Positions 4,894 through 29,427 of a stretch of 35,558 nucleotides of DNA are shown here, one piece after another. Position numbers and translations under genes: made by a program. This DNA is from an uncultured Candidatus Saccharibacteria bacterium. Lineage in GTDB: Bacteria; Patescibacteriota; Minisyncoccia; Phycocordibacterales; JAKFXT01. Under the pieces are notes generated by a model. It saw nothing but the letters and a program-made list of their open reading frames with translations, was not told the DNA's origin and searched no databases. The stretch spans positions 1 to 35,558 of the forward strand of contig CAYLPX010000003.1 of assembly GCA_964385825.1 (NCBI GenBank). Direction: 5' to 3'. Within the stretch, counting starts at the first letter, position 1; every line of letters starts with the position of its first letter.

Positions 4894-5793
4894 TTATTTT
4901 TTGAGGAGTATATCTACTGCTTTAGTAACAATGGGAAGGATATCATCATAAAAATTAAGATTGATAATATCGCTAACCTTAAACCACTGAGTATCATCAA
5001 GTCCTCCTGTTTTTTTAAGCACAACTTCCTGATGTGGAGCAGAGGCTAGGAAATAGACTACCTGTTTGCGGAGTTTACCCTTCTCTGGATCTGACGCAAT
5101 ATACTCATTGTCCCCAAGCTTTTGTTCAACAGTTATTGGCAATCCAATCTCATCATCAAGTACCCGTGCAACCCCCTTTTCCAAATCTTCATTCTCGGTT
5201 AAATGCCCCTTTGAAAGCGTCCAGTGTCCAAATATGTCATGTACGAGGGCCAAATACATATCTTCCCCCTCGCGTGCATACACCACCGCCCCCGCCAAGC
5301 GCTCTATAGGCATTTGCTCATACGGAAGATCAGCTTTTTTAAGTTTCTTTTTAGAAACTTCTTCTTTACCCGGCTCGCCTATTTCCTTGTACACAGCGCC
5401 GAGCACACCATTTACAAACTTACCAGAGTTTTCACCACCGTAACTTTTCGCAAGCTCAATAGCTTCGTTAATAGCCACTTTGGCCGGCACCTCCTTTCGA
5501 TCAGCGAACAATAGTTCAAAAAGCCCAATACGAAGTACATTCCGATCGACAATAGATATTTTTTCTATCGGCCAATCTGGAGCTGCTTTGGTAATAATAA
5601 GATCTAGTTCGTCCCGTTTCTTCAGGATATTTTCACCAAGTTGCTTCATAAAAGCACCGTCTCCCACCCCAGGAGCAAACTCAAGAGCATCGCGCTCAAT
5701 AATAGTTGGAATAGCAGAATCATCCTTTTGAGAGAAATCCCACTCAAAAAGTGCTTGTAAAACTATTGACCGTGAAAGGTGCCTGTTGGCCAT
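4894..5793 (-). CDS. nusB: NusB antitermination factor fused to a C-terminal Nudix hydrolase domain
   Basis: aa 1-135 are NusB-like (RNVLRIGLFELLF...AINEAIELAKSYGGENSGKFVNGVLG). aa 196-218, GHLTENEDLEKGVARVLDDEIGL, fit the Nudix box GX5EX7REUXEEXGU except RE->RV and EE->DE. Confidence 0.8.
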   Translation of the reverse strand: MANRHLSRSIVLQALFEWDFSQKDDSAIPTIIERDALEFAPGVGDGAFMKQLGENILKKRDELDLIITKAAPDWPIEKISIVDRNVLRIGLFELLFADRKEVPAKVAINEAIELAKSYGGENSGKFVNGVLGAVYKEIGEPGKEEVSKKKLKKADLPYEQMPIERLAGAVVYAREGEDMYLALVHDIFGHWTLSKGHLTENEDLEKGVARVLDDEIGLPITVEQKLGDNEYIASDPEKGKLRKQVVYFLASAPHQEVVLKKTGGLDDTQWFKVSDIINLNFYDDILPIVTKAVDILLKK

Positions 5794-10300: not shown

Positions 10301-10477
10301 ATGCTCTTCCTTAAAATTGCTGATTATTCTGATTCACTTGAAATCGTAGTGTTCCCACGCACCTACACCGAACACAAAGATCTTTTTGTAGTTGAAAAAT
10401 GTATAGCTATAAAAGGCAAAATATCGCATCGCAACGGCGCCGTGAGTCTCATTGCTGACGCGGTAAAAGCACTGTAA
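7304..10477 (+). CDS. dnaE: DNA polymerase III alpha subunit
   Basis: N-terminal PHP domain (HLHTHSHYSLL), a polymerase core (GLLKFDFLGIRNL, FNKAHAASYG) and a C-terminal OB-like region. Confidence 0.95.
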   Translation: MSRFVHLHTHSHYSLLTALPKIPELVKAAKADEMVALALTDNGNLYGAIEFYKECKKAGINPIIGVDFYVATRTRHDKEANVDNRRYRLVLLAENNAGYQNLIKLVTESNLDGFYYKPRVDRELLEKYHEGLLAIIPSFSGETSGPLRVTDFEKAQDILSWHKKIFGENNVFLEITHHPDIENHEELNTHIKTLARDTKTPLVAAHDVYYMKPEDKRAREVVLSIQNGGAGGLSNDEEVGDFSFISQSEAESYFSDVPEALANTVSVASRCKVELELGTWTFPNLILPSGKTYEEELRELTYAGIEKRKLERTEEVVNRIEYELNIIKLKGFAPYFLVVADLLHYAHDHGILTTIRGSVAGSLVTYLSGITNINPLEYKLPFERFLNPERPGAPDIDMDYADNRRDEMHEYARVKYGRDHVAQIGTFGTMMARGAVRDVARALGYPYGVGDRIAKIIPFGSQGFPMTIAHALEITPELQEIYKKEEDVREIIDMAQKIEGNARHISIHAAGVVISNRPLNEVVPVQYDPKEGNKIITQYDMWCIEDVGLLKFDFLGIRNLAILSDAMRLVKIHNNIVVDIENVPLDDKKTFELLAKGETMGLFQLNGSGMTRYLKELKPTTIHDINAMVALYRPGPLESIPSYIERKHDASKVTYLDPRLKDILDQSYGVITYQDDVLLTAINLAGYSWLEADKLRKAMGKKIPEVMQAEKEKLIKGFIEFGKLTPQKAQKLWELIEPFAAYGFNKAHAASYGKVAYQTAYMKANFPGEYMTAVLTAESGDVEEVAIIIAECTRMGLSVLPPDINESFRDFTLVRKEQAKDCIRFGLGSIKNFGEGIAGAIIEERTRGGRFTSLPDFLTRIQNRNLNKKSLEALIYSGALDTMGERGNLLFNIEALLAYNRDAKKDVDQTSLFGGLGGGTSAVQLKPSEPMGQTEKLKWEKELLGLYISGHPLDKHREKLAGKSRTIEQIKTTLQDGMMAVAHGIIEEVKPLLTKKGDRMLFLKIADYSDSLEIVVFPRTYTEHKDLFVVEKCIAIKGKISHRNGAVSLIADAVKAL

Positions 10478-10562
10478 CAGTTGATAACTCCTTTTTTCAA
10501 AAAATAAAGGAGTACAATTATACATAGATGTAGGCCGCCCACCTTCAAGAAAGGAGGACTTC

Positions 10563-10781
10563 ATGAGCGCAGCCCAAACGCTTCAAGACCAACCCGCCAC
10601 TCAACAGCAGGTGCAGCAGCAGCAAAAGCAGCAAAGAGGTGCAGTTGAAGTGCAAGAAGATGCACTAATGCATCTGGGCGCTGACCCCGCTGTGTATGCT
10701 GACGATGACACTCCCAAGACTCCACAGAGAAGGGCATTGCGGCGAGCGCCGATTGATGACCTTGTGGATGATGGGGTTTAG
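10563..10781 (+). CDS. Orphan Gln-rich/acidic small protein (72 aa) in high-GC cassette B
   Basis: AGGAGG SD 5 nt upstream of the ATG and a terminator downstream. Line 10561-10620 counts 60% GC. The sequence is low complexity (QQQVQQQQKQQ) and likely disordered. Confidence 0.45.
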   Translation: MSAAQTLQDQPATQQQVQQQQKQQRGAVEVQEDALMHLGADPAVYADDDTPKTPQRRALRRAPIDDLVDDGV

Positions 10782-10796
10782 TGGTTCACCCCCTTG

Positions 10797-10827
10797 AAAT
10801 GGGCGCCTTTGGTGCCCATTTGTTTTG
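10797..10827 (+). terminator. Intrinsic terminator of cassette B
   Basis: Stem AAATGGGCGCC/GGTGCCCATTT with one G-T wobble, followed by GTTTTG. Confidence 0.55.
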
Positions 10828-10861
10828 CGTAAACCTATAAAATGCTATAGTCTGTAACATT

Positions 10862-12100
10862 ATGGAAGAAAAAGAAAACGACCACAAAAAACTAGGTAAG
10901 GAGCTTGATTTATTTACTTTCTCAAGCACCGTTGGTAAGGGTCTACCACTCTGGACCGCTAAAGGGGCGGCGCTTCGTCGTTCACTTGAAAGATTTATTG
11001 TTGATGAAGAAATCAAACGCGGATATCAGCATGTCTACACCCCAGCAATTGCAAAACTAGATCTATATAAAAAGTCCGGTCACTACCCCCACTACAAGGA
11101 TTCCATGTATGCTCCAATTGTCATTGACGATGAGGAGTTCATGCTTCGTCCGATGACCTGCCCTCACCACTTTGAACTATATGCTCGCAAACCGTGGAGC
11201 TACCGTGAACTACCAGTTCGTATAGGAGAACTTGCTCAACTATATCGCTATGAGCAATCAGGAGAACTTATGGGCCTCCAACGAGTTCGTACCTTCTGTT
11301 TGGCTGATGCCCACATCATCTGTGTCAGTGAAGAGCAGGCGATTGAAGAAATTAGCGGAGCGCTTGATCTTATTGAATATGTATCTGGAGTCTTTGGGTT
11401 AAAGCAGGGAGTGGATTTTAAATACCGACTCTCACTTGGCGACCGTGATAATGCTGAAAAATACTACAAAAACGACGCCGCATGGGAGAAGGGAGAAGAT
11501 CTGCTTCGCAAACTTATGCAAAAGCGTAACCAGCCTTTTGTTGAAGCTAAAGATGAAGCTGCATTTTATGGACCAAAAATTGATGTGCAGATGAAAAATG
11601 CAAACGGTAAAGAGGACACTGCTTTTACCGTTCAGTATGACTTTTGTATGCCAGAGCGCTTTAACCTTACCTACATTGGGGATGATGGGAAAGAACACCG
11701 CGCATTTGTAGTCCACCGATCTTCAATAGGTGCTATTGAACGAGTAGTAGCTTTTCTCATTGAACATTTTGCTGGTGCCTTCCCTCTTTGGCTCTCACCA
11801 ATACAAACAACTATTCTCCCAATTAGTGAAAAACATGTTGCTTATGCCAAAGCATTAGAAAAGAAACTGATGGCAGAAAATATTCGTGTAGCGGTAGATG
11901 AAAGCAATGAATCACTGGGTAAAAAAATCCGCAATGCTAAAAACGAAAAGATTCCTTACCTCCTTGTGGTTGGTGATAAAGAAATAGAAACGAATGGCGC
12001 AAGTGTAGAAAGTCGTGACAAGGGAGCGCTTGGCGCCATGAGTGTGGAGGAAATTGTAGAGAAATTAACGATCGAAATTAAAGACAAAAGTCTTACGTAA
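10862..12100 (+). CDS. thrS: Threonyl-tRNA synthetase, catalytic plus anticodon-binding core only (412 aa)
   Basis: It starts at the DHKKLGKELDLF motif that opens the class II core. HRAFVVHRSSIGAIERVVAFLIEH is present, and the C-terminus looks like an anticodon-binding domain. No TGS or editing domain is present. A TATAGT -10 lies 10 nt before the ATG. Confidence 0.9.
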   Translation: MEEKENDHKKLGKELDLFTFSSTVGKGLPLWTAKGAALRRSLERFIVDEEIKRGYQHVYTPAIAKLDLYKKSGHYPHYKDSMYAPIVIDDEEFMLRPMTCPHHFELYARKPWSYRELPVRIGELAQLYRYEQSGELMGLQRVRTFCLADAHIICVSEEQAIEEISGALDLIEYVSGVFGLKQGVDFKYRLSLGDRDNAEKYYKNDAAWEKGEDLLRKLMQKRNQPFVEAKDEAAFYGPKIDVQMKNANGKEDTAFTVQYDFCMPERFNLTYIGDDGKEHRAFVVHRSSIGAIERVVAFLIEHFAGAFPLWLSPIQTTILPISEKHVAYAKALEKKLMAENIRVAVDESNESLGKKIRNAKNEKIPYLLVVGDKEIETNGASVESRDKGALGAMSVEEIVEKLTIEIKDKSLT

Positions 12101-12153: not shown

Positions 12154-14224
12154 ACGCAAAGACTGGAACCAGTACCTTTGAGGAAAGTTCTTTCTCCTCC
12201 TTTATACGCTCTACAGCGAGCAAGAACGCATACACATCAGCCTCTAGCATATGAAGCTTCATAAGGAAGTTCTGTGCCTTCTTTTCTTCTTTGCGCATAA
12301 GCAAATCCACATAGGAACTAGCAAGTGAACAATAAGTATCAGCAAGAAGTTTCTTAACCTTAGCGAGCGTCAAAATAGCTACCATATCCTCAGCAAGCTC
12401 ACTCTTCATAACGAGAATAGCGCTGGTGAGTAAGCTGTGGGCAACAGCACTGTCTCCTTCAGCAATATTGTAGATGAGTTCTGCAGCATCTTCCTTAAGC
12501 AGCGCGCCCTCACGGCGAGCATAAGCAACAAGCTTCTCAAGAATATTGGTTGGTATAGCTGTAACAAGTGGCAACACTACTTCAGGAGCTTGTGGTGAAC
12601 TCACAACGATTTCCCGCTCTCGTGCCAACGTTTGAACCTTTCCTGTAAACTTCTTGCGAAGCACGCTCAAGATGAGCACATACTTGGCGGTAAATGCGCG
12701 AAGAGGTGCAAAATCCTGCCCATATACGGAAACATAGGCGAGGGTCATACTTACCAATAGGAGGGCGAGTACGAACAGTATCGCAACTATCATGTCGCCA
12801 ATACCGGTATACGGAAGCTGGTTAAGATAAAGTCCAGCATACGGAGTAGACGCAAGGTACACAGAAGGATTCACCCCGCCTCCACTTGAAGTTACTGTTA
12901 CATTAGGAACTGGTGATCCACCTCCGCCCCCGCCGCCTCCACCACCTCCTCCGCCAGAACCTGAATTTACAGAAAGTGAAAGTGCCCCAGTGCCTGTGCC
13001 ACAATTATTAGTTGCAGAGAAATTAAGTACATATGAACCAATCGTGCTGACAGTTCCAGAAATAACACCCGTACTGGTGCTTACAGAAAGACCTGCTGGC
13101 AAACTTGATGCTGCGAAGGAGGTTGGATTATTGGTTGCAGTAATAGTGTAAGTAAACGGAGTATCAACTACCACATTAGCTGAAGTACCACTTGTAATAA
13201 CTGGTACGCCAGGAATACAAGGTCCACCCACAGGTACGATAACGATAGTGAGAGTCTGTGCTCCAGATCCACATGCGTTAGTTGCCGTAATAGTCACCGT
13301 ATAAGTTCCAGCTGTTGTTGGAGTACCACTAATTGTGGCACCAGAGAAAGTAAGTCCTGGAGGAAGTGATCCTGCGGTGAAAGTAATAGGGGCTGTTCCA
13401 GATCCGCTTATAGTGTACGAGAAAGCAGTGCCCACAACACCATTAGCAGAAGCTGTAGAAGCAACAGTAACTGCTACACAAGGAGTTGAAGTTGGAGTAG
13501 TTGTTCCAGGAGGCACTATCACCGCTGGTGGAACACTAGCATCAGAATTATTTGAGTTATGAATAAGCGGGATAGCGAGCAGTGCAACCCACCATGGGAA
13601 AGCGTCTTCCTGTGTTCCACCTCCAATATCTACACCAGTCGTATTATCACCACCTCCGATATCAATACCGTTTGTATTATTTCCACCTCCAATGTCTATA
13701 CCATTTGTATTATCCCCTCCACCAATATCTGAAGTTGAAACTGGCTGTATATTACTAGTTGTTACTACATTATTCCCTCCACCAATATCTTCTCCCCACA
13801 TGGTATTTGGCCCATAAAAATTTGAACCATTATCAGAAGAAGTATCTCCTCCTCCAATATTATCCCCCCAAAAACTAGTATTAGCCGTCGTGTTGTTATA
13901 AGAACCTGCATAATCCATATAGTCATCATATGAAGGAAGAGTGATAGGTGGAGGTGCTATCTCCATCTGAGCTGGAAAAATATTTCCACCCACACCTTCC
14001 CCTGAAAGATCTATTGGGGTATCTACATTATCAAAATTAAAATACTCTTCATCGTCAGCTTTTACATTTGTTACAGAATCTAGGGTTGCAAGTTGAGGCG
14101 TCACTATAAGTGAGGTTGGCGCAAAAAGTGTCGTTATGAGAAATAGCACGAAAAGCCCACGAACGAACATACTCGTTTTGGTTTTATTATTCTTTTTTAT
14201 ATTCATGATATTTTTCATATTCAT
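12152..14224 (-). CDS. Surface protein with DIGGG repeats, two Ig-like domains, a poly-Gly linker, an LPYTG motif plus TM segment, and a long cytoplasmic tail
   Basis: N-terminal anchor/signal (GLFVLFLITTLFAP) and DIGGG(D/N)NT repeats. Two Ig-like repeats have the TFTAGSLPPGLTFSGATISGTPT / SFAASSLPAGLSVSTSTGVISGTV pattern. A G13 tract is followed by LNQLPYTG (aa 470-474), the hydrophobic helix IGDMIVAILFVLALLLVSMTLAYV, and about 190 further helical residues. Confidence 0.75.
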   Translation of the reverse strand: MNMKNIMNIKKNNKTKTSMFVRGLFVLFLITTLFAPTSLIVTPQLATLDSVTNVKADDEEYFNFDNVDTPIDLSGEGVGGNIFPAQMEIAPPPITLPSYDDYMDYAGSYNNTTANTSFWGDNIGGGDTSSDNGSNFYGPNTMWGEDIGGGNNVVTTSNIQPVSTSDIGGGDNTNGIDIGGGNNTNGIDIGGGDNTTGVDIGGGTQEDAFPWWVALLAIPLIHNSNNSDASVPPAVIVPPGTTTPTSTPCVAVTVASTASANGVVGTAFSYTISGSGTAPITFTAGSLPPGLTFSGATISGTPTTAGTYTVTITATNACGSGAQTLTIVIVPVGGPCIPGVPVITSGTSANVVVDTPFTYTITATNNPTSFAASSLPAGLSVSTSTGVISGTVSTIGSYVLNFSATNNCGTGTGALSLSVNSGSGGGGGGGGGGGGGSPVPNVTVTSSGGGVNPSVYLASTPYAGLYLNQLPYTGIGDMIVAILFVLALLLVSMTLAYVSVYGQDFAPLRAFTAKYVLILSVLRKKFTGKVQTLAREREIVVSSPQAPEVVLPLVTAIPTNILEKLVAYARREGALLKEDAAELIYNIAEGDSAVAHSLLTSAILVMKSELAEDMVAILTLAKVKKLLADTYCSLASSYVDLLMRKEEKKAQNFLMKLHMLEADVYAFLLAVERIKEEKELSSKVLVPVFA
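13617..13735 (-). repeat. 33-nt tandem coding repeats (3.5 copies) encoding DIGGG(D/N)NTNGI
   Basis: Units at 13617-13649, 13650-13682 and 13683-13715, plus a partial fourth. Diverged copies of ccTCCaccaATATC lie near 13783 and 13849. Confidence 0.8.
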
Positions 14225-14285
14225 TTTTTCGCTAACAGTGCTGTAAAAAAATCGTGGTCTGTAATTACTAGCATAAAATGGGTCA

Positions 14286-14310
14286 GGAGGAGGAACCGAA
14301 GTTCCCCTCC
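14286..14310 (-). terminator. Hairpin with a C(UUCG)G tetraloop downstream of the high-GC lipoprotein gene
   Basis: Minus strand: GGAGGGGAAC-TTCG-GTTCCTCCTCC, a 10-bp stem with one bulge. The weak T-run means terminator function is uncertain. Confidence 0.35.
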
Positions 14311-14323
14311 CTTCCCGAACGAA

Positions 14324-15685
14324 TCACCAGCTCCGCATTGCGGTTTGCGCCGAAGGGCGAGTTACGGCATGGAAATGCCGATGGCATTCCCCCTGCGCCA
14401 AGTCCGGCGGCCGCATTTCACCCACCGTCATCCGCATGGTCGGCTTCCCGGATGCCTTGGGCGGAGACATGAGGTCGCCCTCATACACCGCTTCGAACCA
14501 ACTGGAGAACGCCGATTGCGGAACCACCATCGGCAGATCTTTGCCTTCCCAGCCGTAGGTGCCGAAGTTTTGCCAGCCGTTTTGCTGCTGACTGTGCATC
14601 AGGAGCTTTAGGTTGGGATCGGCCGGCGCATATCGGATCGCACCTGCCTCATACGCCTGCCGGAACTTCGCTCCGAGCTGGCGCGAGACCGACGCTGACT
14701 GAAATCCGCTCTCCCGAGCGGTGAGGTCAAGCACCTGCTGGCGCAATTCGGGCGGCAACGAGTTGCCATCCCAGATATGCGCATGCAGGGTCAGTGCGGT
14801 ACAACCGGCCGGTGCAACCACCGGCAAAACCGGCTGTTGCTGCACCAACTTCGGCGGCAATTCCGCCGCTTTGACTGGCGCCTTGGGGATGCAGATCTCG
14901 AGGATCAATTCCCCTGGCGCGCAGTTGCGCTGGAAGTAGCCGCCGAATTGCGTACGGGCCGTGTTGTTGTAGGACATGGCATACTTTGCAGTATGCGCCG
15001 CCGTGCACTTCACAGTGCGAAAGGTGTTCTTGCTGAAAAATTCCAGCAAGGCCACCTGCTCCGTCCGCCCTTCGGCGGTTGGAACCGGCATGCCGTTCGC
15101 ACGGAGTTCCTGCGCGAATGCCTTGAGGTCTTCCGGGAGAAGCCTCTTGTCGCCGACCTTGAGCGCCTCCAGGAACTGGGGGAACGTCAAGGCGGTATTC
15201 TTCTTGAAGAAGAAGGCATGTTGCGCCTTCGGCAGCGCGAGTTTCACCCCGCGCTGCTTCAGTTGCTCCACCTGCTCCAGCACGTTACCGCACCAGAGAG
15301 AGATGACCCCATCCCAGTCGCAGTTGTTTTGCAACGCCGCGATTTGAGTCGGATTGGTCACCTGGCCGGCGGCCGTTGCGGCCGCCGGGGCAGGAGCTGC
15401 TGCAGCCGGCTTGGAAGCCGATGCGGCAGGTGCCGAAGCTTGCGCTACGGCTGCGGGTGCAGCGGCCGGTGCGGCCGCTGTCGAAGCCGGAGCCGACGCT
15501 TTCGCACGCGGATCCGGCTTGCAAGGAACCCTTGCAGGCGCCCCACCCCCGATCGTACGAGTATTGCTGTCGCACATGCCATCCGCCGAAGCGGTTGGCT
15601 CACCGAAGACCCCCTTCATGAAGGAACCTCCAGCACATCCCGTCAGGGCAAATGCCAAGACGGTTACTGCAACGCGAGTGTACAT
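14324..15685 (-). CDS. Orphan lipoprotein with an Ala/Pro-rich linker (about 453 aa) in high-GC cassette C
   Basis: Internal start MYTRVAVTVLAFALTGCAG carries a lipobox (L-T-G-C); the ORF-track start at 15748 is probably too far upstream. The linker reads ASAPASTAAAPAAAPAAVAQASAPAAS.... Lines count 67% GC (14401-14460) and 80% GC (15361-15420). I recognise no family for the C-terminal two-thirds. Confidence 0.6.
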   Translation of the reverse strand: MYTRVAVTVLAFALTGCAGGSFMKGVFGEPTASADGMCDSNTRTIGGGAPARVPCKPDPRAKASAPASTAAAPAAAPAAVAQASAPAASASKPAAAAPAPAAATAAGQVTNPTQIAALQNNCDWDGVISLWCGNVLEQVEQLKQRGVKLALPKAQHAFFFKKNTALTFPQFLEALKVGDKRLLPEDLKAFAQELRANGMPVPTAEGRTEQVALLEFFSKNTFRTVKCTAAHTAKYAMSYNNTARTQFGGYFQRNCAPGELILEICIPKAPVKAAELPPKLVQQQPVLPVVAPAGCTALTLHAHIWDGNSLPPELRQQVLDLTARESGFQSASVSRQLGAKFRQAYEAGAIRYAPADPNLKLLMHSQQQNGWQNFGTYGWEGKDLPMVVPQSAFSSWFEAVYEGDLMSPPKASGKPTMRMTVGEMRPPDLAQGECHRHFHAVTRPSAQTAMRSW

Positions 15686-15814
15686 GACTGAACCCTTTCT
15701 AGTGGTTGAGTTTGATTCGTTACTTATACTTCCCGAGCGCGCGGACATCTACTACAATGCACGCTTGCGTTTGAGAAGTACAAGATTTCTCAAAGAACAG
15801 CTCCCCACCTTACG

Positions 15815-15856
15815 GTGAAGATTGAGAGAGGGACAAGTCCTTCTCTCAATCTTCAC
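15815..15856. other. 18-bp-stem hairpin between sortase and cassette C
   Basis: GTGAAGATTGAGAGAGGG / CCTTCTCTCAATCTTCAC with one G-T wobble and loop ACAAGT. No flanking T-run, so it is either an atypical terminator for the sortase gene or a cassette boundary element. Confidence 0.5.
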
Positions 15857-15876
15857 AACAAGAAATTTTCAAATTT

Positions 15877-16560
15877 CTAAAGAGCTTGTGCGCTCTTGTA
15901 ACTAGCGGTCACGATATACCGCTCTTCTTTGGCCCCAAAACTATCACAAGTTGAAAGTATGAGCTCGTGATCACGAGAAGCCACATTGATATACGCGAGA
16001 TCAGCGGTAGTGTGCACTACCTTTTCAACAACATAGGTATAGCTACGCTTGTTCCCATAGAGCACAACCGTATCCCCCTTCACCATGGAACGTAGCCCAT
16101 TAAAGGCTTTGTAGTTTTGATTGTGTACCACAGGCAAGAATGAGGAGTGGCCGAATATAAAGATATTCTGAGTACTCTCTAGGTCTCCCGAACCTGGATA
16201 TCGAACTGCCCCATAGAGTAGCGCATCGTCTAGCACTTTACCATCCCGACTCTCTGGGTTCAGAATCTTAGCATCAAGCCCTACTCGAGTAGAAACGATG
16301 CGCACTGGTTCGGTGTACTCCCCGGTACGATCAGTTGGTATACCTGATGTAGGTTCAGCCCCATTCATACTCACCCGATCGTCATGAACAAACAGTGAGA
16401 AAATCACGTTATTCACTTCACGGATGGAAAGTGGCACAGCATTGAAGCCAGCCGAAATCACAAAGAGCAAAACAAAGATAAAAAATGTTCGCTTCAAAAA
16501 GCGCGCCATTTTCTCGTCTTTATGTGCCTCGCTCGAGACTTTTTGCTCTGGTATCTCCAT
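15877..16560 (-). CDS. Sortase-family transpeptidase
   Basis: N-terminal TM (FFIFVLLFVISAGF), catalytic His context IFIFGHSSF, Cys motif LILSTC (TLxTC type) and a downstream Arg (EERYIV). Confidence 0.8.
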   Translation of the reverse strand: MEIPEQKVSSEAHKDEKMARFLKRTFFIFVLLFVISAGFNAVPLSIREVNNVIFSLFVHDDRVSMNGAEPTSGIPTDRTGEYTEPVRIVSTRVGLDAKILNPESRDGKVLDDALLYGAVRYPGSGDLESTQNIFIFGHSSFLPVVHNQNYKAFNGLRSMVKGDTVVLYGNKRSYTYVVEKVVHTTADLAYINVASRDHELILSTCDSFGAKEERYIVTASYKSAQAL

Positions 16561-22251: not shown

Positions 22252-22283
22252 AAAAACCGGCGATCGAATCGCCGGTCTTTTTT
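22252..22283. terminator. Bidirectional terminator shared by cassette D ORF2 and gyrB
   Basis: AAAAACCGGCGAT-CGA-ATCGCCGGTCTTTTTT. The T-run overlaps the gyrB stop codon. Confidence 0.75.
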
Positions 22284-24345
22284 ATATATCGAGCTGTGCC
22301 TTAGTCGCATTGCTTTGGATAAAGCTTTTACGACTCGGTACGTCAGTTCCCATCAAGACATCAAACACCTTATCCGCCTCTTGCGCATCTTCTATTTTCA
22401 CCTGCTTTAAAATACGACGCTTAGGATCCATGGTTGTCTCCCACAATTCCTCGGGGTTCATTTCTCCAAGTCCTTTGTAGCGAGCTACCGTAACTTTAGC
22501 AACACGCTTTGCTTTGGTATCCTCAGGCGCCTCTTCTTCATTTTCCTCTCCCTCAATCTCAACTATCATCTCAGCTATTTCTGGAGCGTCCTTCCCTACT
22601 ATCTTTTTCATCTCCTCCTCGCTGTAAGCGTAATTGACCTCCTTACCGCGTTTAATTTTAAAAAGTGGTGGCTGAGCAATATAGATAAACCCACCATCCA
22701 AGAGCGGTCTGAAGTGTCTGTAAAACAAGGTTAGAATAAGCGTACGGATATGTTCTCCATCAACATCCGCATCAGTTGCAATGATGATTTTGTGATAGCG
22801 CAACTTATCTAGGTTAAAAGTGTCACCAATCAAAGTTCCGAGCGCCAAGACCAGTGAACGGATTTCAACAGATGCCAGCATTTTATCAAGTCGTGCGCGT
22901 TCTACGTTCAAAATCTTACCTTTGAGCGGCAATATAGCTTGTGTCTTGCGATCGCGCCCCTGTTTGCTAGAACCGCCAGCAGAATCTCCCTCTACTATGA
23001 AAAGTTCGGCATCCTCGGCTGAAGTGTTCCCGGCACAATCAGCAAGTTTTCCTGGTAGATTAAAACCTTCAAGGGCCCCCTTACGAAGCACACTATCCTT
23101 CGCAGCCTTTGCAGCCTTGCGTGCGCGAAGAGCCAAAATACCTTTGTTGATAATCTCCCGAGCATCATCAGGGTTCTCCTCCAAAAAGGCACTGAATGCA
23201 TCTGAGAAAACAGTCGAAACTGCAGGCTGCGCTTCAAGCGTGGTGAGCTTGCTCTTAGTTTGACTACTAAACTGTACTTCACGCATCTTCACTGAAATGA
23301 TAGCAGTGAGTCCCTCAAGCACATCTTCACCAGTTAAATTCTCATCTTTTTCTTTAAGAACATTATTCTTGCGAGCATAGGTATTAATGATACGAGTAAG
23401 CGAAAGCTTGAACCCGGCCACATGTGTACCACCTTCACTGTTTACAATATTGTTCGCGAAAGCAATAACTCTCGTAGTGATGTCATCGATGTATTGCATG
23501 GCGATTTCCACCTGCACTCCATCATGCTCTTTTTCGATATAGAAAATATTGCGATGAATCGGTTTTGAAAACTCATTATAGTGTTTGAGTAATGACTTAA
23601 GCCCACCTTCAAAAAAGAAAGAAGAGGTTGGTACTTCATACCCAAGATCAGAAAAATAGACTTTGTTATCAAGATCTAACTTGGTACACTCACGCGCATC
23701 AATGGTACGGATAAGCACACTACGCACAAGGTAGGCTTGCTGACGAAGATGACCGACAATTTTTTCAAAATTAAATTCAGTCGTTTCCTTGAAGATTTCC
23801 TTATCTGGCTTAAACGTTGTGATGGTTCCCGTGAACTTAGTTTTACCAACCTGCTTCACTCGGGCTTTGGCCTTACCCTGAGAATACTCCTGCATGTACA
23901 CTAAGCCATCGCGATGTACTTCTACTTTCATATAAATAGAGAGAGCGTTCACTACAGATGCTCCCACACCATGAAGACCGCCCGAAACGTTGTACCCTTC
24001 CCCTCCGAATTTTCCACCAGCATGGAGGGTGGTCATGATAGTTTCAAGTGCTGAAACTTTTGTTTTAGCATGAACATCAACTGGAATACCACGACCATTA
24101 TCAACCACTCGAATATAATTATCAGGCAAAATGGTAACTTCAATGCGATCAGCATATCCATTCATCGCCTCATCACGTGAGTTATCAAAAATTTCCCAAA
24201 TGAGGTGATGGAGTCCACGCTCATCTACTTCCCCGATATACATCCCCGGGCGCTTACGCACAGGTTCTAGCCCCTCAAGCACAGTGATATCCTGCGCGTT
24301 ATATTCGTGAGCTACCTTTTTCTTTGCTTCTTCTTTTTTGGCCAT
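22282..24345 (-). CDS. gyrB: DNA gyrase subunit B
   Basis: GHKL ATPase motifs (VDNGRGIPV, GGLHGVGASVVNALS), TOPRIM (ELFIVEGDSAGGS, IIIATDADVDGEHI) and YKGLGEMN. Confidence 0.95.
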   Translation of the reverse strand: MAKKEEAKKKVAHEYNAQDITVLEGLEPVRKRPGMYIGEVDERGLHHLIWEIFDNSRDEAMNGYADRIEVTILPDNYIRVVDNGRGIPVDVHAKTKVSALETIMTTLHAGGKFGGEGYNVSGGLHGVGASVVNALSIYMKVEVHRDGLVYMQEYSQGKAKARVKQVGKTKFTGTITTFKPDKEIFKETTEFNFEKIVGHLRQQAYLVRSVLIRTIDARECTKLDLDNKVYFSDLGYEVPTSSFFFEGGLKSLLKHYNEFSKPIHRNIFYIEKEHDGVQVEIAMQYIDDITTRVIAFANNIVNSEGGTHVAGFKLSLTRIINTYARKNNVLKEKDENLTGEDVLEGLTAIISVKMREVQFSSQTKSKLTTLEAQPAVSTVFSDAFSAFLEENPDDAREIINKGILALRARKAAKAAKDSVLRKGALEGFNLPGKLADCAGNTSAEDAELFIVEGDSAGGSSKQGRDRKTQAILPLKGKILNVERARLDKMLASVEIRSLVLALGTLIGDTFNLDKLRYHKIIIATDADVDGEHIRTLILTLFYRHFRPLLDGGFIYIAQPPLFKIKRGKEVNYAYSEEEMKKIVGKDAPEIAEMIVEIEGEENEEEAPEDTKAKRVAKVTVARYKGLGEMNPEELWETTMDPKRRILKQVKIEDAQEADKVFDVLMGTDVPSRKSFIQSNATKAQLDI

Positions 24346-24540
24346 GCTGTTAGTTTGTAAGGTAGTTTTGTAAACAAAAAATACCTCCTTAGGTCACCCT
24401 ATTATAGCAAAATTAGAGCTAGAAAGAAAGCTAAAAAAGCCTTATCTTACATAGCTAAAACTTGCTTTTTAAGGTATTTATGGGATAGTTGTAGTCAGTG
24501 TAGTTCCCCTTTAACCCTTTCCCTTTTGGGAGGAGGTTGT

Positions 24541-25047
24541 ATGAAATACTTCTGGTTTCTCTTTGCCCTCTGCCTTGCCGGAGCGTGCTGCGCACAAACG
24601 CCGAAAATGGTGGGGTGGCACCTGTTCCCCATCGAGACCGAAGATGGTGGGGTGGAGCCCCGGTTTACGGGAGTGATAGACACCGCATGGTGCGACATCA
24701 CCATCAAAGCAACCAACCATTTGGTCTTCTCGGCGCTTGTAGCCGAAGAGAATCAACCGCGGTACCAGGAGGGAGGTACCATACAACACAAGGAGATCTC
24801 GATAAAAGGCGTTCCGGGGGTACTCACTATCCTCACCAATAACGCCGTCAACGTCGAGGTCGGAGAGGGCAAATGGTTGAGTACTGATGCGCCACCACGA
24901 CCATTATTCCAAGAATACTGCGTGGATGCAGTGAGGCGCTTGCCAGGCGCCGTTCAGGCCCTTTTCGGGGGAACCTTTGGGATCGGGAGACCCCTTACCG
25001 AAATACCACAGGCATTGATACTTCGGGTTCAAGAAGGAGCGGACTGA
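24541..25047 (+). CDS. Orphan secreted protein (168 aa), high-GC cassette E ORF1
   Basis: GGGAGGAGG SD directly upstream of the ATG at 24541. Signal peptide MKYFWFLFALCLAGACCAQ. Line 24601-24660 counts 63% GC. Confidence 0.55.
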   Translation: MKYFWFLFALCLAGACCAQTPKMVGWHLFPIETEDGGVEPRFTGVIDTAWCDITIKATNHLVFSALVAEENQPRYQEGGTIQHKEISIKGVPGVLTILTNNAVNVEVGEGKWLSTDAPPRPLFQEYCVDAVRRLPGAVQALFGGTFGIGRPLTEIPQALILRVQEGAD

Positions 25048-25048
25048 A

Positions 25049-25177
25049 ATGAAAACCCTCCAAATCATCGCCGGCACAGTTGCCGGCGATCGGTGGCAAA
25101 CAGCTGCCGTAAGCCGTATCCCGATCTTCATTCTTCTCATTCTTGTTTTCACCCTCGCCTATGTGGCGGGAGTATGA
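25049..25177 (+). CDS. Micro-ORF (42 aa) encoding a C-terminal TM helix, translationally coupled to cassette E ORF1
   Basis: Hand-translated: MKTLQIIAGTVAGDRWQTAAVSRIPIFILLILVFTLAYVAGV. Its ATG lies 1 nt after the ORF1 TGA, with an AAGGAG SD 9 nt upstream and a terminator immediately after. It is below the 60-aa track threshold. Confidence 0.4.
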   Translation: MKTLQIIAGTVAGDRWQTAAVSRIPIFILLILVFTLAYVAGV

Positions 25178-25184
25178 AGACAGG

Positions 25185-25214
25185 CGGCGCCCACCCGGGG
25201 CGCCGTTTTCTTTT
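25185..25214 (+). terminator. Intrinsic terminator after cassette E ORF1-ORF2
   Basis: 8-bp GC stem CGGCGCCC/GGGCGCCG, 5-nt loop, then TTTTCTTTT. Confidence 0.7.
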
Positions 25215-25267
25215 GCAGGAATAATAAAAATATAGTAAAACCTAAGTAGACAACTTGGGAGCCGAAC

Positions 25268-25591
25268 ATGAACCTCCACGCCATCAATCGCATCCTAGCC
25301 ATGCTGGCAGTCGCCGCGGCGTCTGCTGCTTGGTACCACAAGACGTACAACCAAATCGATTACGCAGTACAGGTTTGGGAACACAACAAGGCGGACGATG
25401 AGGAGTACCGCAGATACGCCTACATCAAGGAGTTCGAGTTTGGCACCTGCTATGCCAACGAGGATGGCGCCCTCCTCCATGGAAGGATTTTGGGCTTTGC
25501 CGACATGCAGAGGCTTGACCTTTGCATGAAAGATTTCCGAGAAAACGGGCGCGCTGAACTTTCGATCGCCCTTGATGCTGACCCGCCGTGA
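25268..25591 (+). CDS. Orphan protein with an N-terminal hydrophobic segment (107 aa), high-GC cassette E ORF3
   Basis: GGGAG SD 6 nt upstream. N-terminus INRILAMLAVAAASAAW. A TATAGT -10-like box at 25233-25238. The terminator hairpin contains the stop codon. Confidence 0.5.
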   Translation: MNLHAINRILAMLAVAAASAAWYHKTYNQIDYAVQVWEHNKADDEEYRRYAYIKEFEFGTCYANEDGALLHGRILGFADMQRLDLCMKDFRENGRAELSIALDADPP

Positions 25592-25603
25592 GGCGGGTTT
25601 TTT
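25582..25603 (+). terminator. Intrinsic terminator after cassette E ORF3
   Basis: CCCGCC-GTGA-GGCGGG followed by T6. The stop TGA sits in the loop. Confidence 0.75.
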
Positions 25604-25608
25604 GCTTT

Positions 25609-26133
25609 CTATTTTTTACTTACAAAAATTGCCTTGCCACGCCATGAAAAAAGAAAATCATGGAAGGATACAAAAATGTCCTTCCCCTTTTCACGATGTA
25701 GACTTTCTGGATCATTAAAATAAAAACCTTCTAATTCTGGTACTTCACCTTCCAATTCTTTTATTCCCGTGAGTACCACCATATGAAACTTATGTTGTCC
25801 CAATATCACCTTATCAGCCGACACTATAACTGGACTTCCGGCACGTAAGGCTAAAACTAGTTCTGCTACCCCATCGCCCGCATCCATTCCCTCTTTGCGA
25901 TATGCATGGAGTCCCGCCGCATTACATTCACTTACCACATAATCATGGATGAGGCCCGAAGGCCCATAGCCACCATCATCAAGGGCCTTCTTGGCCAATT
26001 CCGCAATAGAAAGATGTGCCACGCCAAAATAGTCGTAAATCATTTTCATACAGCAGAAGCCACAAGCTCGCGGCATCCAGTAGGGATCTTGAATATCTAA
26101 AAACTGCGAATAGTATGGTACGTCTAATTTCAT
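25609..26133 (-). CDS. Peptidase C39-like (papain-fold) domain protein
   Basis: VPYYSQ...PRACGFCCMKMIYDYFG resembles the C39_2/BtrH-like N-terminal Cys motif. Composition is that of the AT-rich backbone. A TACAAT box lies 11 nt upstream of the ATG. Confidence 0.6.
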   Translation of the reverse strand: MKLDVPYYSQFLDIQDPYWMPRACGFCCMKMIYDYFGVAHLSIAELAKKALDDGGYGPSGLIHDYVVSECNAAGLHAYRKEGMDAGDGVAELVLALRAGSPVIVSADKVILGQHKFHMVVLTGIKELEGEVPELEGFYFNDPESLHREKGKDIFVSFHDFLFSWRGKAIFVSKK

Positions 26134-26263: not shown

Positions 26264-28627
26264 TTAGCGGACTTGCCAGTTAGCGTTGGCGTTAAGAGTG
26301 TCTGTGATGCTCTGCATCACAACATTTATTTCTTCGTCAGTAAGTGTTTTATCCATTGCCTGGAAAACAAGGTGGTAGGCGTACGACACTCTACCCTCTT
26401 TACGAAACTCATCGAACTGATCGATGCGAACAAAGTATGGACCAGCATGTTCTACAATTATTTTAGAAACCTCATTACTTGTTATTGTTTCAGGTACAAA
26501 GATAGCAATGTCGCGAAGTATAAATGGATAGGAAGAAAACGTCTTGAAAGCAATATCGGGACTGCGAGAAAATTCAATAGCAGAAATCTCTGGAAGTTTA
26601 TCAAGTAAATCTGTAAGGTTAGTTTCGCATGTGCTTTGACCATCATTAATCTCGATACCTACTTTCATTTTTAGCGCTACTCTAACTTCTTCAAGTATTT
26701 GCTTTTCTATCTCTCTTCCTTTTTTACCAAAATTAGGAACAAAAACATCAATGGCAAGAGAGAGATGTTCTTTGTTATTACCAAAAACCTTACCGATTTC
26801 AAATAATTTAACCTCTGAAAGTCCCAGAAGTGGAGCATTGTAAGTATTAAGCCCCTGGCTTTCTCTTAACCCCGCAATAAGAGATTGGCGCATAAAGTTT
26901 TTATTCCCCGCAATAGGATTCTGTAATTCTACTTCCCCATGTTCCACCATGGCATAGGTATACACCTCGGAAAACCCAGCCTCTGTCAGAGTCGTTCGGA
27001 TTTTATCTAAATAATAGAACTCCTTGTTTACTTCAACTTCGTGCGTCATGTTCGGAAGAATCGATGGGATATGTTCTAGCCCATAGATACGTCCTATTTC
27101 ATCAATAAGGTCTTCCTTGATACGCACATCAAGCCGCTCAAATGGAACTTCAACAAGAAAACGAGTTTCCTTTTGATCAGCCACGCGCCCATAGCCAATA
27201 ATATTTTTAAATTGATCACTTGTCGCTAAATCCTCAACAACCACCCCATTCTTACTTTTTGTAGCGTGAAGTATTTTACCCTCTCCCACATACATACCTA
27301 CATGATCAACTCCTTCAGGAACCTTGGTGCCTTTTATAAACTGTACTGACTCATAATAAATCTTTCCTTCGCCTGTATTTGCAAAAACGAGATCACCATA
27401 GGCGAGATTTTCTTTTTCTACCCTATCACTAAACACATACTTATCGACTGAATAACTAGGCATGTATATCCCCGCCTCAACATACAGGTAACTCACTAAT
27501 GATGAGCAACTAAAAAATCTTGGTGGGTCAACACGCATAGAACTGTCTCGTCTATATGCAGCGCTAAGTGTTGCTGGAATTGCATTTCGGAGTGCTTCTT
27601 CGACTACTAATTTTTTATGCGAAAGTCCAAGACGTTTCAAAATAGCATCAACCTCACTCTCTTTAAGTTCTGTACCAAGAAGTGTATTTATTTCTTTGGT
27701 TGAGACACCAAGTTTATATTGATGCTCAACATAGTCTTTATAATCAACCGCGCCTTCAACTACAAAATTCTCGCCCCTTGCTTCTTTTTCAAGAAGTTCA
27801 ATAGCATATGCGACTGCATAGCCCGGAAGCTCGGGAGCTAAGCCATTTTCAAAACGCTTTGAGGCATCAGTGCGAACATCAAGCAGCTTACTGCCGCGGC
27901 GAATAGTCTCTGCATCAAAGTTTGCTGCTTCCAAAATAATGTCCGTGGTGTCTTCCGTGATACTAGAACTCATTCCCCCTTTAATTCCACCGATCCCTAA
28001 AATATTCTTGCCATCCGTATTGCCATCAGTGATAAGTAACACACCACTTGGAATCACTCGTTCTGCTCCGTCCAATGTTTGTGTTTTTTCACCCTCTGCA
28101 CTTTCCCGTACGACAAACTTATACCCCCCCTCTTTCTCACTCAACTTTTTAGCATCAAAAGCGTGCATTGGTTGTCCAATATCAAACATCACAAAGTTAG
28201 TGATATCCACTACATTGTTTATAGACCGGCCTCCCATAGCTTCTATCCGCTCGCGAAGCCACTTAGGAGACTCTTTTACTTTCACCCCGCGCACCACGGC
28301 TCCATGAAAACGTTTTACTTTGGAAGTTGCCACTTCCACTGTCCAGGCATTTGATTCTGGGAAAGTCTGTAATTTTTTCTCAAATGGTTTTCGAGTGAGC
28401 GGGATATTAAAAATAGCGGAAACTTCTTTAGCCACCCCATAGTGACAAAAACAGTCATGCGCGCGATTGGGTAACACTTTTACATCAAGAACTGTATCGT
28501 CCCCCACTGCTCTCACCTCCTCAATTTCAAAAGCATGGTTTGTAAGCCCAGTGGCCAAATCTGCAGCCGAAGGGAGTTCAGTATCAAAAAATGTTTGGAG
28601 CCATGCTCGTGAGATCAACATACACAT
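26264..28627 (-). CDS. pheT: Phenylalanyl-tRNA synthetase beta subunit carrying an inserted NlpC/P60 domain and lacking the EMAP/OB tRNA-binding domain
   Basis: B3/4 domain (VVDITNFVMFDIGQPMHAFDA), B5 halves (EINTLLGTELKESEVDAILKRLGL ... VEVPFERLDVRIKEDLIDEIGRIYGLEHIPS) and a C-terminal FDX-ACB-like domain. aa 341-489 between the B5 halves are NlpC/P60-like. The start codon overlaps the pheS stop (TAATG). Confidence 0.9.
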   Translation of the reverse strand: MCMLISRAWLQTFFDTELPSAADLATGLTNHAFEIEEVRAVGDDTVLDVKVLPNRAHDCFCHYGVAKEVSAIFNIPLTRKPFEKKLQTFPESNAWTVEVATSKVKRFHGAVVRGVKVKESPKWLRERIEAMGGRSINNVVDITNFVMFDIGQPMHAFDAKKLSEKEGGYKFVVRESAEGEKTQTLDGAERVIPSGVLLITDGNTDGKNILGIGGIKGGMSSSITEDTTDIILEAANFDAETIRRGSKLLDVRTDASKRFENGLAPELPGYAVAYAIELLEKEARGENFVVEGAVDYKDYVEHQYKLGVSTKEINTLLGTELKESEVDAILKRLGLSHKKLVVEEALRNAIPATLSAAYRRDSSMRVDPPRFFSCSSLVSYLYVEAGIYMPSYSVDKYVFSDRVEKENLAYGDLVFANTGEGKIYYESVQFIKGTKVPEGVDHVGMYVGEGKILHATKSKNGVVVEDLATSDQFKNIIGYGRVADQKETRFLVEVPFERLDVRIKEDLIDEIGRIYGLEHIPSILPNMTHEVEVNKEFYYLDKIRTTLTEAGFSEVYTYAMVEHGEVELQNPIAGNKNFMRQSLIAGLRESQGLNTYNAPLLGLSEVKLFEIGKVFGNNKEHLSLAIDVFVPNFGKKGREIEKQILEEVRVALKMKVGIEINDGQSTCETNLTDLLDKLPEISAIEFSRSPDIAFKTFSSYPFILRDIAIFVPETITSNEVSKIIVEHAGPYFVRIDQFDEFRKEGRVSYAYHLVFQAMDKTLTDEEINVVMQSITDTLNANANWQVR

Positions 28628-29385
28628 TAAAACTGGTTAACCAAACGAAGATCTCCTTGATACAAAAGTCTGACGTCGGGAATACCGTACTTTATAACTC
28701 CCAAACGATCTAATCCCATACCGAACGCAAAACCCGTGTACTTACGAGGATCAATACCACCAGCCTCAAGTGTCTTGGGGTGCACCATACCTGCCCCCAT
28801 CAGTTCTATCCAGCCAGTGTTTTTACAAACAGTACAACCCTTCCCCTGACATTTAACACATGTTACATCTGCTTCAACTCCCGGCTCCACGAACGGGAAA
28901 TAACTAGGACGAAGTCGTATAGCTACTGGTACCCCGAAAAATTCTTTGAAGAAATGTTCGAGCACTCCCTTAAAGTGGGCAAGTGATACTCCCTCTCCCA
29001 CCATAAGACCCTCAAGTTGATAAAACTGTGCTTCATGTGTCGCATCTGTTGCTTCATGGCGATAGACCTTACCGGGAGTGACCATAGCTATCGGCATAGT
29101 ATCTTTGTGGCTCTGCATGTAACGAATCTGCACAGGGCTTGTATGAGTGCGAAGAAGTTTACGAGCGTTAAGCGGTTTAAGCCAAAAAGTATCCCACATG
29201 TCACGAGCTGGGTGCCACTCGGGAATATTGAGTGCATCGAAGTTATAGAACTCCGTTTCTATTTCAGGCCCATCAGCAACAGCAAATCCGAGTCCACGAA
29301 AAATACGGGCAATATCCCGTTGCATAAGGGTTATAGGGTGTAAATGCCCTTTAGCCCCAGGTGATTCTTGAGTTAGTTCTGCCAT
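28627..29385 (-). CDS. pheS: Phenylalanyl-tRNA synthetase alpha subunit, short form
   Basis: Class II core motifs (HPARDMWDTFW, FRLRPSYFPFVEPG, GFAFGMGLDRL). I prefer the ATG at 29385 (MAELTQ) because a TATAAT box (29393-29398, minus strand) lies 7 nt upstream; the ORF-track start at 29403 is a TTG inside that promoter. Confidence 0.9.
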   Translation of the reverse strand: MAELTQESPGAKGHLHPITLMQRDIARIFRGLGFAVADGPEIETEFYNFDALNIPEWHPARDMWDTFWLKPLNARKLLRTHTSPVQIRYMQSHKDTMPIAMVTPGKVYRHEATDATHEAQFYQLEGLMVGEGVSLAHFKGVLEHFFKEFFGVPVAIRLRPSYFPFVEPGVEADVTCVKCQGKGCTVCKNTGWIELMGAGMVHPKTLEAGGIDPRKYTGFAFGMGLDRLGVIKYGIPDVRLLYQGDLRLVNQF

Positions 29386-29427
29386 CTCTCGTATTATAGC
29401 CAAATAAGCTTATAATTCCACCCTACC

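Follow-up and report, generated by a model that had tools for sequence, protein, structure and literature searches.

An NlpC/P60 cysteine hydrolase domain nested in the B5 domain of the phenylalanyl-tRNA synthetase beta subunit of Patescibacteria, and its free-standing relatives

Bacterial phenylalanyl-tRNA synthetase (PheRS) is an (alpha-beta)2 enzyme whose beta subunit (PheT; TIGR00472; Thermus thermophilus 1PYS/1B70, Escherichia coli 3PCO) carries the domains B3/4, B5, B6/7, and B8 in that order. The B5 domain has been described as uninvolved in aminoacylation, with no function assigned to it (PMC10880493). Among hydrolases, the cytoplasmic NlpC/P60 enzyme YkfC has been described to recycle murein tripeptide in Chlamydia (PMC9928106). 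The subject of the present study is a pheT gene (26264 to 28627, reverse strand; identified from its open reading frame [ORF], Pfam, and TIGR00472) in a window of 35,558 nucleotides, the whole stretch of DNA that was analyzed, from an uncultured Candidatus Saccharibacteria bacterium (contig CAYLPX010000003.1). A complete and canonical NlpC/P60 (MEROPS C40) domain splits the B5 domain of the encoded 787-amino-acid (aa) PheT, and its Cys374-His442-His454 triad is intact. Aminoacyl-tRNA synthetases do acquire extra domains, and we know of no described case of a papain-fold hydrolase of the cell wall type nested in one. Full-text literature searches returned no description of an NlpC/P60 insertion in PheRS and no paper on a bacterial single-chain PheRS; the fusion is visible in databases, through Pfam calls and mixed protein names, but is unstudied.

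The insertion was delimited by profile matches and by alignment. The profile search proposed in the initial annotation gave matches to NLPC_P60, B5, and B3_4 on the 787-aa protein. The NLPC_P60 match covers aa 371-471 (E=2.6e-13; 50.3 bits against a gathering cut-off of 23), several NCBIfam models of NlpC/P60 endopeptidases also match across aa 367-482, and B5 was matched as two separate stretches, the better of which is aa 482-516 (profile positions 32-66/67). In the phmmer alignment to T. thermophilus PheT, query residue 335 pairs with residue 433 and query residue 490 with residue 442, so that approximately 154 aa stand in place of approximately 8. Insert-free PheTs show a single clean gap in the alignment, between 'L.RL.F...' and 'F.V..PFERLD'. 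The initial annotation had placed an NlpC/P60 domain of about 150 aa inside B5, at aa 341-489, and both its identity and its extent were borne out; the coordinates, including those of the Cys374 codon, proved exact when checked codon by codon. The insert (27161 to 27607, reverse strand; deduced from Pfam, PDB matches, AlphaFold2 [AF2], Foldseek, and conservation) follows the N-terminal half of B5 (approximately aa 296-340; 27608 to 27742, reverse strand; Pfam and alignment), which ends in ...ILKRLGLSHKKL. It is followed by the C-terminal half (aa 490-518; 27074 to 27160, reverse strand; Pfam and alignment), which reads FLVEVPFERLDVRIKEDLIDEIGRIYG and holds the acidic residues D500, D506, D509, and E510.

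The proposal that the triad is intact was supported by the alignment of the motifs FFSCSS, DHVGMY, and ILHAT with the catalytic Cys, His, and third residue (His) of solved NlpC/P60 enzymes, approximately 30 structures of which were matched when the PDB was searched by sequence with the insert alone. The corresponding codons lie at 27506-27508 (TGC) for Cys374, 27302-27304 for His442, and 27266-27268 for His454, while GDLVF occupies aa 411-415. Between GDLVF and DHVG lies an additional hairpin of about 20 aa that is specific to the family; among the free-standing copies described below, some have it in variable form or lack it. An AF2 model of aa 290-525, comprising the insert and both halves of B5 and built from a 35-sequence alignment, gave a predicted local distance difference test (pLDDT) score of 93.9 and a predicted TM score (pTM) of 0.88, and B5 and insert are together predicted to fold as one confident two-domain unit. 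Foldseek comparison with the PDB returned 60 matches at E<=1e-3 and placed the insert in the papain-like alpha+beta fold. The best match was Clostridioides difficile Acd24020 (7cfl; TMt 0.90, root mean square deviation [rmsd] 1.7 A), and the CwlT-like Acd33800, MepS/Spr, CwlO, LytE, the YkfC-like 3h41, RipA, and RipB were also among the top matches. These top structural matches were all peptidoglycan DL-endopeptidases; the permuted LRAT/acyltransferase type was not among them, and no deacylase was found among the PDB matches of the insert.

The domain order of the window PheT is a B1 remnant, B3/4, the N-terminal half of B5, NlpC/P60, the C-terminal half of B5, B6/7 (the catalytic-like module, CLM), and B8, and it scores narrowly above the equivalog cut-off of TIGR00472 (406 bits against 402.65). 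The B3/4 editing domain occupies aa 105-281 (27785 to 28315, reverse strand; Pfam B3_4, 180.2 bits; alignment to 1b70_B). The B6/7 module (aa 520-690) and the B8 FDX-ACB anticodon-binding domain (aa 698-787) together span 26267 to 27070 on the same strand, with the Pfam families tRNA_synthFbeta matched at aa 520-620 and FDX-ACB at aa 698-787. When aligned to 1b70_B with phmmer, the window protein has identical residues at the positions of T. thermophilus Thr249, Asn250, His261, and Glu334, which we take from the PheRS literature to be the editing-site residues of B3/4; the first three are inside B3/4 and the last is just beyond it in 'ILEAANFD'. Likewise, D500, D506, D509, and E510 of the window correspond to T. 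thermophilus D452, D458, E461, and E462, presumably, following the UniProt/HAMAP annotation, an Mg2+ site shared with the alpha subunit. The N-terminal B2 domain (the tRNA_bind or EMAP OB-fold) was not found, as the initial annotation had noted: there was no PF01588 match, and the alignment begins at T. thermophilus residue 151. Absence of B2 has already been recorded for many PheRS-beta proteins of the candidate phyla radiation (PMC5370408). One other PheT (P0139; 903 aa) has both a B2 tRNA_bind domain and the NlpC/P60 insert, from which the loss of B2 and the gain of the insert were deduced to be separate events.

The gene lies directly 3' of pheS (28627 to 29403, reverse strand), the stop codon of which overlaps the pheT start at 28627. 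The encoded PheS is a short alpha subunit of 258 aa that consists of the catalytic core alone (Pfam tRNA-synt_2d, 321.9 bits; TIGR00468, 284.9 bits); it matches TIGR00468 only at profile positions 65-322/324, the N-terminal coiled-coil tRNA-binding arm being missing. The window has kept from the (alpha-beta)2 enzymes the order of the domains B3/4, B5, B6/7, and B8, the pheS-pheT operon, and the residues of the editing site and of the acidic B5 positions. It differs from them by the 150-aa hydrolase that splits B5, by the lack of the B2 OB-fold, and by an alpha subunit without the N-terminal coiled coil. Divergence between pheT at 26264-28627 and that of its close relative at locus L006 (8996-11365) is very uneven, with identities of 90-97% for the N terminus and B3/4, 88% for the insert, 82% for B8, and 62% for B6/7. 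The low value in B6/7 could reflect recombination or relaxed constraint in that region.

The insertion recurs widely, a point that the initial annotation had left to a survey of PheT sequences. Among the 120 best matches of a whole-protein search, 114 were PheTs of approximately 750-830 aa with PF00877, from Patescibacteria by source name (Kaiser-, Yonath-, Paceibacterota, and others), and the remaining 6 were close relatives of 602-641 aa without the insert. Cys374 and His442 are present in all 114 of the insert-bearing PheTs and His454 in 110. The mean consensus fraction of the insert (0.61) falls within that of the other PheT domains (0.48-0.79), so that it is equally conserved. An exhaustive profile search of 1.84 billion representatives (clusters at 50% identity, E<=1e-30) matched 169 clusters, mainly PheTs in which the module falls near residues 300-510. 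When GTDB species, each represented by a single genome, were scanned for the motif, 112 loci were confirmed, of which 80 were retained as the loci set; nearly all of these are labelled as metagenome-assembled genomes of the Patescibacteria/Parcubacteria type, and one contig is labelled Alphaproteobacteria. Between the window and L006, its closest species representative, the ratio of nonsynonymous to synonymous divergence (dN/dS) was 0.056 for the insert, 0.061 for B3/4, and 0.114 for CLM, values that are rough since dS is near saturation. Strong purifying selection acts on the split-B5 architecture, which is an old feature of the Parcubacteria-type Patescibacteria. The expectation that automated annotation would hide the insertion held only in part: precomputed Pfam results do list PF00877, while the NCBI names of insert-bearing PheTs vary among 'beta subunit-related protein', 'C40 family peptidase', and 'hypothetical protein'.

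A separate form was considered for proteins of 480-555 aa in which the module stands close to the N terminus (B5::NlpC-CLM-B8), but these were set aside as being most probably genes truncated at contig ends. Two sub-types of insert were distinguished, 'FSCSSL...MPS...DKY' and 'FDCSSF...IPR...DQ' (inserts P0039-P0158, free modules P0001-P0034). Both occur inside one clade of PheT backbones (97%) and among the free modules of one monophyletic lineage, a pattern that reflects either convergence or exchange of the module between genes.

The module also exists outside PheT. When the insert alone served as query, 38 proteins were returned, mostly of approximately 190-240 aa and none of them a PheT. 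These free modules (approximately 220 aa) read B5 N-terminal half, NlpC/P60, and B5 C-terminal half, and end just past the B5 helix. Their loci encode a protein of 372-396 aa that joins a PheS core to FDX-ACB and scores below the cut-offs of both TIGR00469 (pheS_mito; 236-250 bits against 258) and NF051887 ('PheS-related mystery ligase SrmL'; 231-253 bits against 300). The free module stands immediately beside the PheS+FDX-ACB gene, with gyrB next, which is the position of pheS-pheT in the window, and in a co-directional group some free modules share overlapping stop and start codons with the PheRS gene. The synteny anchor gyrB lies at 22282 to 24345 of the window (reverse strand), and the order pheS, pheT (or free module), the C39-like gene where present, and gyrB is kept across the clade. 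Single-chain PheRS genes were found at L002 (8862-10001) and L007 (7048-8196, reverse strand), and also at L008-L012, L018, L021, L022, L067, L069, L075, L077, L084, and L085; no B3/4 or B6/7 ORF was present near the single-chain genes at those loci.

Classification of the module form covered 79 loci. In 62 the module is embedded, and all 52 of these with a detectable nearby pheS pair it with a short PheS of 243-291 aa. In the other 17 it is free, 14 of them beside the long PheS+FDX-ACB gene. The catalytic triad is kept in 17/17 free modules, while the acidic B5 positions, nearly invariant in the embedded PheTs, have decayed (D 8/17, N 8/17, K 8/17, E 7/17). This implies that selection on the free protein acts on the hydrolase and not on the PheRS-specific part of B5. 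In trees made by neighbour joining from Kimura distances with 100-200 bootstraps, as were all trees in this study, the fused PheS+FDX-ACB forms were monophyletic for the PheS core (100%) and the free-module lineage was monophyletic for gyrB (99%), and a single origin of the reduced PheRS state was deduced from the two. The module tree itself, in which monophyly of the stand-alone form received 0-1% bootstrap and subclade S1 99.5%, would suggest two independent origins of the free module; this was countered by the monophyly of PheS core and gyrB, and differences in rate, or exchange between the sub-types FSCSSL..MPS and FDCSSF..IPR, have probably distorted the module tree. The B5::NlpC/P60 unit therefore behaves as an evolutionary module, which has outlasted deletion of the rest of the beta subunit as a free gene.

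The next gene downstream of pheT (25609 to 26133, reverse strand) encodes a C39_2-like papain-fold cysteine peptidase of 174 aa, in agreement with the initial annotation and as deduced from Pfam, conservation, AF2, and Foldseek. It matches Peptidase_C39_2 (PF13529) with 44.7 bits against a cut-off of 24 and falls below the cut-off of the classical C39 family (PF03412; 19.9 bits against 22). Gln10, Cys24, and His117 are invariant, and no signal peptide was found on the C39-like proteins. The AF2 model has a pLDDT of 96.5; the double-glycine C39 peptidases LahT, PCAT1, and ComA were its top Foldseek matches (TMq approximately 0.65), and the pseudomurein endoisopeptidase PeiR was also matched (0.63). 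Classical C39 members are fused to an ABC exporter, whereas at the loci examined the C39-like gene had neither a transporter fusion nor a transporter neighbour.

Among 54 insert-bearing loci with room downstream, 38 have a C39-like homologue 3' of pheT, 37 of them within 800 nucleotides. The gene is absent in all four insert-free relatives (L005, L086, L087, and L088), where pheS, pheT, and gyrB run on directly, giving a one-sided Fisher p of approximately 0.004, uncorrected for phylogeny. Three proteins fuse the module to the C39-like peptidase: L036 (400 aa; 9842-11044), P0167 (397 aa), and P0169 (392 aa). They are encoded away from PheRS genes, between CAP-domain and DUF218 genes and downstream of genes for a DD-carboxypeptidase and GT4. 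A cytoplasmic C39-like cysteine peptidase thus accompanies the module, is lost along with it, and in some proteins is joined to it; this peptidase is likely to be the partner of the module.

The window and L006 are sister to three insert-free lineages (gyrB, 99%; PheT backbone, 93%), with L088 standing apart. From this placement, the simplest history is a secondary loss of the insert together with the C39 gene, which probably happened twice. Distances for the window insert and its backbone disagree (Spearman -0.30, against +0.70 overall), and in view of this and of the grouping of the backbone with insert-free PheTs, lateral gain of the insert as a 'cassette' was considered. It was judged less parsimonious than co-loss, since gyrB gives the same sister relationship and the next-nearest species hold the most similar inserts.

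The three free modules that do not adjoin PheRS genes lie among envelope genes, their neighbours being a Peptidase_S11 DD-carboxypeptidase, Glycos_transf_4 (MraY-like GT4), CAP, DUF218, VanW with PG_binding_4, and a Mur ligase. A role in anti-phage defence was also considered and rejected: PADLOC gave no match for the module, the C39 protein, or the fusion, and PHROGs gave only generic matches to tail-lysin NlpC/P60 domains.

From the fold and the gene neighbourhoods, we tentatively favour a cytoplasmic amidase of murein-type peptides, partnered by the C39-like peptidase, scaffolded on B5, and unconnected with tRNA charging. The module would be an active cysteine amidase or peptidase of the gamma-D-glutamyl-diamino-acid (murein stem peptide) type, and it may, with the C39-like peptidase, degrade peptidoglycan-derived or similar peptides in a manner resembling YkfC. 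Such breakdown could serve salvage or turnover in auxotrophic bacteria with reduced genomes. The B5 domain would be dispensable for aminoacylation and would offer a tolerant insertion site and a structural scaffold, and PheRS would be the carrier of the hydrolase and not its mechanistic partner. Several points weigh against this proposal. Similarity of fold does not fix specificity, and the module is without the SH3b domains that give YkfC its own; nor does the proposal account for why such an enzyme would reside in PheRS. An adjacent C39 gene is missing from 16/54 insert-bearing loci, and the cell wall neighbourhoods amount to only two or three independent contexts. Furthermore, 14/17 free modules still adjoin a PheRS gene, some with overlapping stop and start codons, an adjacency that fits inherited synteny and equally a lasting physical link with PheRS.

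In an unlikely alternative, which this adjacency keeps in view, B5 would dock the domain on the catalytic core, the target of the NlpC/P60 Cys would be the ester bond of (mis)acylated tRNA(Phe) or the aminoacyl-adenylate, and the resulting acyl-thioester would be hydrolysed (editing or clearance) or passed to an amine acceptor. In its favour, more than 100 lineages have the domain embedded in their synthetase, acyltransferases that use thioester intermediates (LRAT/H-RAS-like) belong to the NlpC/P60 superfamily, and the single-chain enzymes, beside which 14/17 free modules lie, have lost the B3/4 domain and so leave an editing gap. In the window, however, replacement of a degenerate editing domain was ruled out by the intact B3/4 residues, and the presence of these residues favours independence of the hydrolase from editing. 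The same is favoured by the survival of the module after loss of the beta subunit, with its triad invariant and its acidic B5 residues decayed, by the identity of the closest structural relatives as peptidoglycan DL-endopeptidases with none of the permuted LRAT type, and by the copies far from any PheRS gene among cell wall genes; the C39-like partner would also have no obvious part in such editing or transfer. It is quite unlikely that B5::NlpC/P60 is a new synthetase-associated catalytic domain docked on the PheRS core, in cis within PheT or in trans beside the single chain, with a Cys that captures Phe-AMP or (mis)acylated tRNA(Phe) in thioester form, either for proofreading or so that the aminoacyl group can be handed to a peptide or cell wall acceptor, the C39-like peptidase acting on the product. 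On balance, the indirect evidence speaks more for a moonlighting hydrolase that is independent of PheRS than for a part in editing.

The structural relatives might instead point outside the cell, to a true cell wall hydrolase that reaches the bacterium's own wall or that of a host bacterium by a non-classical route, whether lysis, vesicles, or a dedicated exporter. In fold and sequence the domain comes nearest to secreted autolysins and to phage or tail lysins, Patescibacteria are thought to be episymbionts, and the modules away from PheRS genes adjoin envelope genes that include a secreted CAP-domain protein and VanW with PG_binding_4. This is nonetheless quite improbable, as no signal peptide or transmembrane segment is present in the free modules or in the C39-like proteins, all of which start directly with B5 or the catalytic domain, no wall-binding Pfam domain (LysM, SH3b, PG_binding) is fused to the module, and most lineages have the domain within an enzyme that is cytoplasmic and essential. 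Also weighed were a neutral passenger and a sensor or regulator in which binding or slow turnover of murein fragments, or of some other ligand, would link the activity or stability of PheRS to the state of the wall. Both would suit a B5 domain that has no assigned catalytic role and tolerates an insert, as well as the existence of insert-free relatives, and non-catalytic NlpC/P60 proteins are known, such as RipD, which was matched in the profile and structure searches. RipD-type proteins have lost the triad, however, while the B5::NlpC/P60 family has not: Cys and His are invariant in 114/114 embedded and 17/17 free copies, which together with the dN/dS of 0.056 speaks for catalysis and against neutrality. 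Since the module is also kept where no beta subunit remains to be regulated, a sensor or passenger is considered very improbable.

Its wide distribution and strong constraint across a large uncultured radiation would make the domain the mark of an activity indispensable to these minimal cells. In the same clade, a bacterial PheRS has collapsed to the mitochondrial single-chain design and has kept this module alone from its beta subunit, which bears on the origin of mitochondrial PheRS and on the purpose of B5. Action of the hydrolase on murein peptides would point to a salvage route in Patescibacteria, and action on aminoacyl-tRNA would make it a new class of editing or transfer domain.

The window is otherwise ordinary Patescibacteria housekeeping DNA, with smc, rnc, a nusB-NUDIX fusion, rnhB, dnaE, and a class II aminoacyl-tRNA synthetase gene, and it also holds sortase, surface protein, gyrB, glycosyltransferase, and glycosidase genes. 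The NusB-NUDIX fusion protein (299 aa; 4894-5793) is kept in related contigs, at L001 (19777-20658) and at the end of L002. The GC content at 14000-16000 is 0.54-0.57, compared with approximately 0.42 elsewhere, and this stretch spans an ORF (14324-15748; 474 aa; no Pfam family) beside a sortase gene and genes for Ig/PKD-repeat surface proteins. The 1.26 kb between gyrB and the C39-like gene (24346-25608) has no convincing gene on the operon strand and no Rfam match. On the opposite strand there are two ORFs without a Pfam match, one at 24526-25047 (173 aa), which has a hydrophobic, lipoprotein-like N terminus and no more than a weak match in L006, and the other at 25268-25591 (107 aa).

Four described systems bear comparison with the module and its single-chain setting. 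The 372-396-aa proteins of the sister clade have the same architecture as mitochondrial monomeric PheRS (PheS core plus FDX-ACB; TIGR00469) but are bacterial, lie at the ancestral pheST locus, and are accompanied by a free B5::NlpC/P60 gene, whereas the window keeps the two-subunit form. CtdA, a trans-editing deacylase of the B3/4 type, provides a precedent for PheT domains that survive as free proteins (PMC12449066); the free piece here is B5 with a foreign hydrolase and not the editing domain. With the NlpC/P60 (MEROPS C40) DL-endopeptidases (Acd24020 7CFL, the CwlT-like Acd33800, MepS/Spr, and CwlO/LytE) the insert has in common the canonical, unpermuted topology, the Cys-His-His triad, and the conserved 'PY' Tyr (TMt 0.8-0.9, rmsd approximately 2 A). 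It differs from them in having no signal peptide and no wall-binding domain, in being nested in a domain of a cytoplasmic synthetase, and in the hairpin of about 20 aa between GDLVF and DHVG that is particular to its family. For the proposed role, the precedent is given by the YkfC-type recycling enzymes (Bacillus subtilis/Bacillus cereus 3H41; Chlamydia trachomatis YkfC, PMC9928106), which are intracellular NlpC/P60 enzymes, found also in an organism with a reduced genome, and 3h41 was among the Foldseek matches of the insert. YkfC reads the free L-Ala through its N-terminal SH3b domains, whereas the accessory domain here is B5.

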